This document shows positions 6,340 to 7,248 of a DNA stretch of 42,145 nt, one piece after another. Under the pieces are notes generated by a model. The model was not told the origin of the DNA. It saw only the letters and a list, made by a program, of their open reading frames with translations, and did not search any database. A program made the translations under genes and the position numbers. Source of the stretch: Candidatus Saccharimonadia bacterium (GTDB taxonomy: Bacteria > Patescibacteriota > Saccharimonadia > Saccharimonadales > DATKHC01); assembly GCA_035510315.1 (NCBI GenBank), contig DATKHH010000003.1:1-42145 (forward strand), given 5' to 3'. How positions within the stretch are numbered: the stretch's first letter is position 1; each line of letters begins with the position of its first letter.

Positions 6340-6552
6340 ATGTCAGTTAATAGTCGCAAGGCAATAGCACAGAGACTCTATGATGCCCGAAAATATAGCG
6401 GTCTAACTCAAGTTGCTCTTGCTAAAAAGGCTGGTGTTAACGACAACTATTACGCTCGAGTTGAACGAGGTGAAGTTAGCCCTACTCTTGAAAAGTTTGA
6501 AAAGATAGTAAAAGCTCTGGACACTAAATCCTCAAAAATTATAGATTTTTAG
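6340..6552 (+). CDS. XRE/Cro-type helix-turn-helix transcriptional regulator, 70 aa
   Basis: HTH signature LTQVALAKKAGVNDNYYARVERGE. I prefer the ATG at 6340, preceded by aaagga (6327-6332), over the TTG at 6271 given in the ORF track. Its stop overlaps the stop of the convergent 69-aa gene. Confidence 0.8.
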   Translation: MSVNSRKAIAQRLYDARKYSGLTQVALAKKAGVNDNYYARVERGEVSPTLEKFEKIVKALDTKSSKIIDF

Positions 6553-6758
6553 TATTCTTCCAAGTCTTTAAGCTCTGCTTCTACTGCATCCGGATCAATA
6601 TTCTCAATTATTTTTTGGCGTGTGTTCATTCTATCCAGAATTCGCCTAGCTGTTTTAGCGTCAGCTCTTTCTGGGTTAATAATCTTAAGATAATTAATAA
6701 CTTTTTCAATATCGTCATCAGTAATATGGTATTGGTCTTCATCTTTCATATCAGACAT
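6549..6758 (-). CDS. Small acidic protein, 69 aa (19 D/E versus 11 K/R), unknown function, translationally coupled to the PLD gene
   Basis: Its ATG lies 7 nt after the PLD stop codon. The agagg RBS overlaps the PLD stop codon. Confidence 0.65.
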   Translation of the reverse strand: MSDMKDEDQYHITDDDIEKVINYLKIINPERADAKTARRILDRMNTRQKIIENIDPDAVEAELKDLEEY

Positions 6759-6765
6759 ACTACCT

Positions 6766-7248
6766 CTAACTTAAAAACTTATCAATCTTAATAAATCTAG
6801 CCATTTGCCAAGCTAGCTGATTTGATTTAATCCTACGCATTACTTCACAGCTATCATTTTGAGACAAGACGTTTAAAGAACCCTCGTATAGTATCTGCCT
6901 ATCAATAATGACTATCTTTCTGTGATGACCGGAGGTATATAGAACCTGGATACCCATTTGTTGCATCTTTGAAATGGCATGGTGGGTATCTTCTCTGCAG
7001 TACTCATTATCGTGTTCAATTGGATCTCTTGTATTAACTACAATTCTGACTTTTCTATTCTTTAGTTTTTGCAGAGTAGGCAACAACTGATTGAGCCGTC
7101 TATTAGTTATAAAAGGAGACTCAATAATAAGCTCATATAGACACTTATTTATGTCTTTTGTGAAAACGGAGTAAAACGACTCTTCGTTAAGAAGTTGTGA
7201 AGATAATACCTCAGATGATATAGTTTTACGGAGGAGTAGGTTAAGCAT
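6766..7248 (-). CDS. Single-HKD phospholipase D superfamily protein (Nuc-like nuclease), 160 aa
   Basis: Perfect HKD motif HRKIVIIDRQILYEGSLN (H-x-K-x4-D-x6-G-S-x-N), encoded at 6871-6924. I moved the start to the ATG at 7248, which has GGAGG 7 nt upstream; the ORF track extends to 7302. Confidence 0.85.
   Translation of the reverse strand: MLNLLLRKTISSEVLSSQLLNEESFYSVFTKDINKCLYELIIESPFITNRRLNQLLPTLQKLKNRKVRIVVNTRDPIEHDNEYCREDTHHAISKMQQMGIQVLYTSGHHRKIVIIDRQILYEGSLNVLSQNDSCEVMRRIKSNQLAWQMARFIKIDKFLS

Follow-up and report, generated by a model that had tools for sequence, protein, structure and literature searches.

A phospholipase D-family gene in the conserved left-end module of integrative mobilizable and conjugative elements of Saccharimonadia

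The window analysed here is a stretch of 42,145 nucleotides from a Candidatus Saccharimonadia bacterium (contig DATKHH010000003.1, assembly GCA_035510315.1), on the minus strand of which a gene for a phospholipase D (PLD)-family phosphodiesterase of 160 aa is closely followed by a gene for a small acidic protein of 69 aa. An earlier note, made from the letters of the window, had taken the two for a two-gene module; they are in fact the middle part of a block of four genes at the attL end of an element, namely a short open reading frame (ORF) called the tail, the PLD gene, the small gene and a convergent helix-turn-helix (HTH) regulator gene, and the first and last of these had been missed. In a family of integrative mobilizable or conjugative elements of Saccharimonadia, the block is the module conserved at the left (attL-proximal) end, and very probably it is the core module, at attL, of a new family of integrative mobilizable elements (IMEs) and integrative conjugative elements (ICEs) with a serine recombinase. 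The preferred explanation of the whole, to which a probability of about 0.4 is given, is an attL module with a nuclease coupled to the recombinase gene and a small regulatory partner. No description of this module or of these elements was found in the literature that was searched. The core features of the window are as follows.

7363-7377, minus strand: attL core, TGGTGGGTAGTAAGG on the minus strand and CCTTACTACCCACCA on the plus strand, resembling a tRNA 3' end (acceptor stem, discriminator and CCA)
7241-7378, minus strand: tail ORF of 45 codons from TTG at 7378 (52 aa if read from GTG at 7399), matched by the tail-A hidden Markov model (HMM) with E=1.6e-19
6766-7248, minus strand: single-HKD PLD-family phosphodiesterase, 160 aa, of the Nuc/NucT/Zucchini fold (Pfam, homologues and AlphaFold2 model)
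6549-6758, minus strand: small, acidic protein of three helices with 69 aa, or with 66 aa if it starts at the second Met (profile, model and dN/dS)
6340-6552, plus strand: convergent Xre/Cro-type HTH_3 regulator, 70 aa, sharing 4 nt at its 3' end with the 3' end of the small ORF

A conserved four-gene block

The two ORFs that the earlier note had placed at 6766-7248 and 6549-6758 were both confirmed on the minus strand, as was the junction it had described between them. The PLD stop codon TAG (6768-6766) is followed by AGGTAGT and then by the ATG of the small ORF at 6758, which leaves a gap of 7 nt, and a GAGG ribosome-binding sequence overlaps the stop codon ahead of the small ORF. The PLD ORF starts with ATG at 7248, preceded by GGAGG, and the stop codon of the tail overlaps this ATG by 8 nt. 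The same order was found in the first related locus, where a 46-aa ORF with an 8-nt overlap with the PLD start is followed by the PLD gene, the small gene and a convergent HTH_3 gene.

Counts of the module refer to 68 distinct, fully covered loci, and the clustering of neighbourhoods to 83 loci. An upstream tail ORF abuts the PLD gene in 60 of the 68 loci, being of type A in 39 and of type B in 21, while the small protein is encoded in 39 and the HTH gene is kept at the same place in 29 (45-54% identity). The distance between the PLD and small genes varies from -26 to +39 nt across loci. Beyond the block the neighbours vary, and comprise restriction-modification (RM) systems, reverse transcriptases of diversity-generating retroelements (DGRs), RadC and transposases. 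As a separate observation, an IS1595-family transposase ORF in L031, L032 and L043 (5046-6008) stops 8 nt into the PLD gene, where the tail normally stops, so that an IS1595-family insertion sequence took the place of the tail and kept the overlap with the PLD start.

All four genes are under constraint. Among five related loci, dN/dS was 0.020 for the small gene, 0.034 for the PLD gene, 0.054 for the HTH gene and 0.10 for the tail, the last in loci without the recombinase. Because the PLD protein has more than 1147 homologues and the small protein at least 150, both with low dN/dS, neither of the two is a chance ORF.

Insertion into tRNA genes by a serine recombinase

A large serine recombinase of 600 aa in L006 and L012 has the tail as its C-terminal 44 aa, in frame with the rest. 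The Pfam domains Resolvase, Recombinase and Zn_ribbon_recom were found in the recombinase of L006; in other loci the homology to the recombinase begins sharply at codon 557 (tblastn, blastn). A metagenome search with the recombinase yielded 80 loci, in which most ORFs stop near residue 564 and have no tail. In all but two of 42 scanned loci, a tRNA gene on the minus strand, opposite to the recombinase ORF, overlaps or adjoins the 3' end of that ORF; it is mostly tRNA-Glu and otherwise tRNA-Gln, tRNA-Arg, tRNA-Val or tRNA-Trp. Moreover, the tail ORF opens with ~19 nt (TGGTGACCTCACCGGGGAT) that are antisense to the 3' end of this tRNA, an antisense stretch common to the attR, attP-type and attL sequences, and in L033, L067, L069 and L114 direct repeats of the same tRNA 3' end stand at the tail start and in the closing tRNA, with 7-11 nt identical (11 of 12 in L069).

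As these junctions show, the elements insert into the 3' ends of tRNA genes, mostly of tRNA-Glu, and the crossover lies within the recombinase ORF, such that the integrated form of the ORF ends inside the tRNA and the attP-type junction gains the 44-aa tail. In the attP-type junction, tail, PLD and small genes stand directly behind the recombinase gene in one transcription direction. Recombinase ORFs containing the crossover were noted at L006:1674-3476, L012:1499-3328 and L098/L100:~11620-11760, and in other loci from L095 to L174. Because analogous tail starts in L033, L067, L069 and L114 repeat the tRNA 3' end, the attL core at 7363-7377 probably marks the left boundary of the integrated element in the window.

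A tRNA or other RNA gene in the left flank beside the tail was also considered and dropped, as ARAGORN and Rfam found none there and the tRNA lies at the other end of the element. A terminator-like hairpin is present at the same place beside the tails of other loci and of the window; in each case it is probably the terminator of the tRNA in a displaced position. Just before this hairpin, a common left-flank stretch resembling GGGGTTCGCTTCATTTCACTGCGTGAAATAACCAAG was seen in L008, L010 and L011 (~5780-5840) and in L114 (~290-330); it had no match in ARAGORN or, for L008, L010 and L011, which were the loci covered by the Rfam search, in Rfam.

Several loci contain arrays of two to five direct copies of the tail, each with its upstream hairpin, at distances of 1-2 kb (L062:680-5972, L053:1206-6005, L056, L059, L016 and L025). 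Single cargo genes lie between the tails of an array, mostly on the opposite strand, and encode PIN/AbrB and RelE/Phd toxin-antitoxin (TA) pairs or membrane proteins. These arrays look as if decayed elements had accumulated in tandem at a single tRNA site; a cassette array like that of integrons had been considered for the repeated tails and was given up for this reading once the tRNA target was found.

Architecture and mobilization of the elements

Gene maps of bounded elements give lengths of 9.4-12 kb and the order tail, PLD, small, HTH (convergent), cargo with a type IV coupling protein (T4CP), Replic_Relax, a small acidic ORF, recombinase and tRNA. The cargo often includes a VirD4-type coupling protein, RM systems or DGRs. 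Bounded elements carry both a VirD4/TrwB-type T4CP and a Replic_Relax relaxase, the latter being the MOBC relaxase family (PMC5357655). In view of the bounded gene maps, the MOBC relaxase and the attP site inside the recombinase ORF, the elements are integrative and mobilizable, and conjugative where a gene cluster for a type IV secretion system (T4SS) is attached, as in L099, in which such a cluster adjoins the module. In addition, the PLD gene appears to be a core gene of the element and not cargo, because it is the most conserved gene of the element and has a fixed place.

Two further observations concern the rest of the element. A conserved acidic ORF of 45-70 aa (..ERLELLADxLLEI..EE..) lies immediately upstream of the recombinase gene (L095:9880-10017, L099:9874-10020, L114:7981-8139 and L152:9760-9972), overlaps the recombinase start in three of these four loci, and is a candidate excision or directionality factor. 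Furthermore, DGR genes (RVT_1 together with a bAvd-like four-helix protein) occur as cargo a few kb from the module in L089-L091, L114, L095, L022 and L051.

A T4CP gene lies within 6 kb of the PLD gene in 26 of the 83 loci (~30%), against a chance expectation of ~2%, which is our own estimate from the approximately two T4CP copies that a patescibacterial genome has (PMC12102498). In Patescibacteria, orphan coupling proteins have been reported by the thousand and relaxases hardly at all (PMC12102498). This strong enrichment, the scarcity of canonical relaxases and the translational coupling of a core PLD gene to the recombinase tail would all suit a PLD that processes DNA, either as a nickase for transfer or replication or as a Tdp-like remover of 5'-phosphoseryl recombinase-DNA adducts, with the small protein as its specificity or regulatory subunit. 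PLD enzymes act via a covalent phospho-histidine intermediate. Such a role is nevertheless quite improbable, since the PLD protein contains no DNA-recognition domain and its gene persists in loci from which recombinase, relaxase and T4CP genes are gone. In particular, the PLD was downgraded as the missing relaxase, because complete elements already carry the MOBC relaxase. A bolder version of this idea must be called a long shot: the recombinase gene would span attP and exchange its last 44 residues on integration, tail, PLD and small genes would be part of its operon only when the element is excised or in tandem, the PLD would process DNA specifically in that state (by clearing 5'-phosphoseryl adducts, or as an unconventional nickase) as a type of enzyme so far undescribed from mobile elements, and the small protein would read the tail for direction or timing.

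The PLD phosphodiesterase

The 160-aa protein is a single-HKD phosphodiesterase of the Nuc/NucT/Zucchini fold. The HxKx4Dx6GSxN catalytic motif that the earlier note had recognized is present as GHHRKIVIIDRQILYEGSLN, and its residues H108, K111, D116, G123, S124 and N126 are invariant among 26 homologues, in an alignment with 40 invariant columns. The protein matches Pfam PLDc_2 (PF13091) with E=6.7e-12 and 45.8 bits against a cut-off of 27. Its AlphaFold2 model (mean predicted local distance difference test, pLDDT, 86.6) resembles Nuc (1byr), NucT (6ehi) and Zucchini (4ggk) with template-modelling (TM) scores of 0.60-0.72, so the predicted fold agrees with the Nuc/Zucchini type that had been proposed from the size of the protein, and among solved structures Zucchini/MitoPLD is the closest in sequence (E=0.009 in the HKD region). 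Size and fold suggest a homodimer with one shared active site, and also nuclease activity. In L013 and L014, the Ser of GSxN is replaced (EGILN) while the rest is intact and the small partner is kept, and the enzyme of these two loci may be inactivated.

Nearly all homologues of the PLD protein are 156-166 aa long, with 59-75% identity to that of the window, and their named source organisms are almost always Saccharimonadia or other Patescibacteria. Relatives were found in 497 stretches among 185,579 species genomes (one genome per species), with two to five copies in several genomes. A housekeeping role was rejected because of these multiple copies (up to five per genome), the variable flanks and the sparse occurrence. 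A phage origin was likewise dropped, because a search of phage genomes, IMG/VR and plasmid collections returned no relatives except one weak match from Agrobacterium.

The N-terminus of the PLD protein (MLNLLLRKTISSEVLSS) has no hydrophobic signal segment, as judged by reading the sequence. This bears on the idea that the PLD is an effector exported through the patescibacterial T4SS by the neighbouring coupling protein, for example in order to degrade host nucleic acids, with the small protein providing immunity. The adjacent T4CP genes and the T4SS cluster beside the module in L099 are consistent with this, and both characterised bacterial Nuc-type PLDs, pKM101 Nuc and Helicobacter pylori NucT, have been linked to T4SS-related processes. 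Export is very improbable all the same: neither a signal peptide nor a recognisable C-terminal secretion signal was seen in the PLD sequence, 43% of the PLDs have no immunity candidate, and the gene is associated chiefly with the att site and the recombinase rather than with T4SS genes.

The small acidic protein

The 69-aa ORF encodes a real, strongly constrained three-helix protein. Because the NCBI start is the second Met (66 aa) and homologues begin near the same position, its start is uncertain by three codons. Single-sequence searches with the protein found little, as a word-indexed search matched only the query itself and an exhaustive phmmer search matched eight proteins; the family was recovered only by a profile built from homologues read out of related loci. 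The homologues so obtained are 53-96 aa long and none has a Pfam domain. The net charge of the window protein is -8, in line with the acidic partner of the earlier note; the family (median -6, range -12 to +3) is mostly but not universally acidic.

The predicted structure is a confident three-helix bundle (pLDDT 88.9). The earlier note had supposed a DNA mimic, an idea that found no backing, since fold searches with the model against PDB and BFVD gave no structural relative and no DNA-mimic or immunity-protein match. Searches of Pfam, NCBIfam, PHROG and PADLOC returned no family match either, and the model matched no HTH-like fold. A borderline match of the profile to PDB sequences was obtained for the helical lid of ClpC D1 (E=0.005 over 61 residues), in which LPDKAIDLIDEA of the small protein is aligned with PEKAIALLEDL; the fold search gave it no support.

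As to the co-occurrence with the PLD gene, which the earlier note had suggested as a check, one direction holds. In an HMM scan the small protein was found in 50 of 85 PLD loci and only there, but for an extra orphan copy 1.3 kb downstream in L056, and when the small-protein matches were taken as the starting point, a PLD gene stood directly upstream in 10 of 10 places. The other direction does not hold, as 29 of the 68 distinct loci have a PLD gene and no small gene.

Proposed function of the PLD protein and its partner

In the mechanism that we favour, the PLD would be the element's own nuclease, and its expression, together with that of the small gene, would be tied to the recombinase gene, with the convergent HTH repressor gene acting against it. 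In the tail-A lineage, the small protein might act together with the tail peptide as a regulatory partner, and in the most likely case it would restrain the nuclease in an immunity-like manner. The module may thereby serve the element, either through stabilisation (addiction) or through the exclusion or degradation of competing DNA. The inhibitor mechanism of the small protein is our guess, put forward tentatively and at somewhat less than even odds, and the PLD and small proteins are no more than candidates for a poison-antidote pair, as proposed from their sequences.

The toxin/immunity pair of the earlier note is borne out in part by the pattern of gene loss. In the tail-A lineage a PLD gene without the small gene was found in none of 39 loci, and six small genes in five loci (L036, L056, L059, L095 and L119) lie beside a PLD gene that is frameshifted, truncated or absent. 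Such an asymmetric loss is as expected of an inhibitor. The pair also persists in decayed remnants of elements, next to classical TA pairs.

Several findings weigh against the favoured mechanism, the first of them also against the toxin/immunity pair. In 29 of the 68 loci the PLD gene retains an intact catalytic motif and has no small partner (and the motif is intact in all 35 PLD ORFs without a partner), because of which an obligate inhibitor cannot be family-wide, unless the acidic tail-B peptide takes its place. The divergence of the small protein tracks that of the tail (partial rank correlation 0.51, p=0.001) and, with the tail controlled for, not that of the PLD (-0.01, p=0.49), even though the PLD gene lies between the two; in addition, no column of the PLD alignment separates PLDs with a small partner from those without. 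The neighbour-joining tree of the PLD proteins is poorly resolved. The coupling to the recombinase is also less direct than it may appear. The recombinase-tail fusions (L006, L012, L097, L099 and L103) may be tandem arrays, for which reason an operon of the excised state is only inferred, and circular contigs, which were sought by terminal overlap, were not found. The module is under selection in loci without a recombinase within 6 kb; this persistence agrees with addiction or a benefit to the host and proves neither. Lastly, the window holds the attL end only, as its element extends leftwards to the contig end, with the recombinase end, relaxase, T4CP and the source tRNA that bounds the element outside it.

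The main rival explanation takes up the link to the tail. According to it, the small protein acts on the recombinase by binding the 44-aa tail of the attP configuration, like a recombination directionality factor (RDF), and the PLD is a separate enzyme encoded in between. It is favoured by the strict association of the small protein with tail A (39 of 39 loci), as opposed to tail B (0 of 21) or tail B and tail-less loci together (0 of 29), as well as by the correlation of the small protein with the tail and by the absence of a PLD column that marks the partner. Among the known RDFs of large serine recombinases are small proteins, 58-75 aa in length, that work through protein contact (SprB and TP901-1 Orf7). 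We consider it unlikely, if still a serious contender, since the small gene has a dN/dS of 0.02 in loci without a recombinase within 6 kb and the product of the acidic ORF that precedes the recombinase gene is just as good a candidate for an RDF; the correlation, for its part, could reflect shared rate variation or gene conversion within the PLD gene, which is highly conserved.

Another possibility is a toxin-antitoxin or nuclease-immunity pair that stands on its own as cargo, addictive or defensive, without a role in the life cycle of the element. Such a pair would account for the tight coupling of the two genes, for a downstream partner that is small, mostly acidic and helical as in colicin DNase-immunity (Im) pairs, for the multiple copies per genome, for the survival in decayed remnants beside classical TA pairs and for the asymmetric loss within the tail-A lineage. 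It seems rather unlikely, given that the position at the att boundary is fixed in 60 of the 68 loci and that the PLD gene is the most conserved gene of the element, unlike the variable cargo. Moreover, the partner is missing from 29 of the 68 loci and follows the tail in its divergence, and the small protein has neither the DNA-binding domain of a type II antitoxin nor a structural relative, the HTH being encoded by a separate convergent gene.

Other features of the window

Two further features flank the block.

7406-7423, no strand assigned: terminator-like perfect palindrome of 18 nt, GTTATCAACGTTGATAAC, with T5 after it on the minus strand, lying just beyond the attL core
1-6339, no strand assigned: variable cargo of the island up to the contig end, with a giant SNF2-helicase/methyltransferase gene and ORFs of 174, 186 and 207 aa without a family

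The palindrome was read from the sequence only, and a simple terminator scan did not list it. Positions 1-6339 probably belong to the element, and the cargo proteins encoded there have no homologue in other PLD loci. The giant ORF (19-4359, plus strand, 1446 aa), which may begin beyond the contig end, contains HTH domains, an SNF2 helicase and a C-terminal S-adenosylmethionine-dependent methyltransferase, and resembles the large helicase-methylase proteins of conjugative elements. On the other side, housekeeping genes (LemA, M48 peptidase, LigA and Mur ligase) start right of 8.5 kb.

Significance

Hardly anything is known of the mobile elements of Saccharibacteria and other Patescibacteria. 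The family described here is defined by the 3' end of tRNA-Glu, tRNA-Gln, tRNA-Trp or tRNA-Leu as its target, a recombinase ORF that contains the crossover, a MOBC relaxase, a T4CP and a universal Nuc-type PLD accompanied by small partners. If this holds, part of the orphan T4CPs would be explained as cargo of mobilizable elements, and serine integrases with known natural attB sites would be available as genetic tools for bacteria in which manipulation is very hard. It would further offer a case, open to testing, in which a nuclease and an integrase are linked via a shared, exchangeable peptide. The toxin/immunity idea would also be directly testable, because the partners for co-expression (tail, PLD, small and HTH) are now defined.

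Comparison with known systems

Nuc (pKM101/Salmonella, 1byr) and NucT (H. pylori, 6ehi) are similar to the PLD protein in length (~155-160 aa), in the single HxKx4Dx6GSxN motif and in fold (TM 0.65-0.72), and Nuc is likewise encoded on a conjugative element. The identity is only 15-16%, however, and Nuc and NucT are exported, while the PLD protein has no N-terminal signal peptide. Unlike them, it also has a fixed place at the att boundary behind a serine recombinase and dedicated small partners, namely the tail and the 69-aa protein. Zucchini/MitoPLD (4ggj, 4ggk) is a top fold match as well as the best PDB sequence match, and Zucchini is a single-HKD nuclease dimer; yet it is a eukaryotic, membrane-anchored single-stranded RNA nuclease of the piRNA pathway, without a genomic or functional context in common with the present protein.

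The defence systems Mokosh and DISARM, with which the earlier note had compared the PLD, are similar in the PLD domain only (PADLOC profiles MkoC 4.8e-15, MkoB 1.6e-9 and DrmC 1.6e-5), because their defining helicase and methylase partners are not conserved beside this PLD. The SNF2/methyltransferase gene of the window has no counterpart in other loci, so it does not amount to a conserved partner of the Mokosh or DISARM kind. Colicin DNase-Im pairs share the arrangement of a nuclease gene followed within a few nt by the gene of a small acidic all-helical protein, and differ in that the PLD carries no delivery domain, that the partner is absent in 43% of the family and that no structural similarity was found.

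With regard to integration, SSV1-type archaeal integrases and IntP/IntX of the Myxococcus phage Mx8 have attP inside the integrase gene and a tRNA target, and their ORF is changed or split on integration. The present elements are alike in that integration into a tRNA gene alters the recombinase ORF. Unlike in those systems, the enzyme is a large serine recombinase of Patescibacteria, only its last 44 residues are exchanged, and the detached tail is an expressed, constrained ORF coupled to a nuclease gene. The same logic of an integrase, a Replic_Relax/MOBC relaxase, a VirD4-type T4CP, an HTH regulator and insertion at a specific site is found in the IMEs of Firmicutes (PMC5357655), from which the family of Saccharimonadia is distinguished by its host phylum, by a tRNA 3'-end target with attP inside the recombinase ORF and by the universal PLD core gene.

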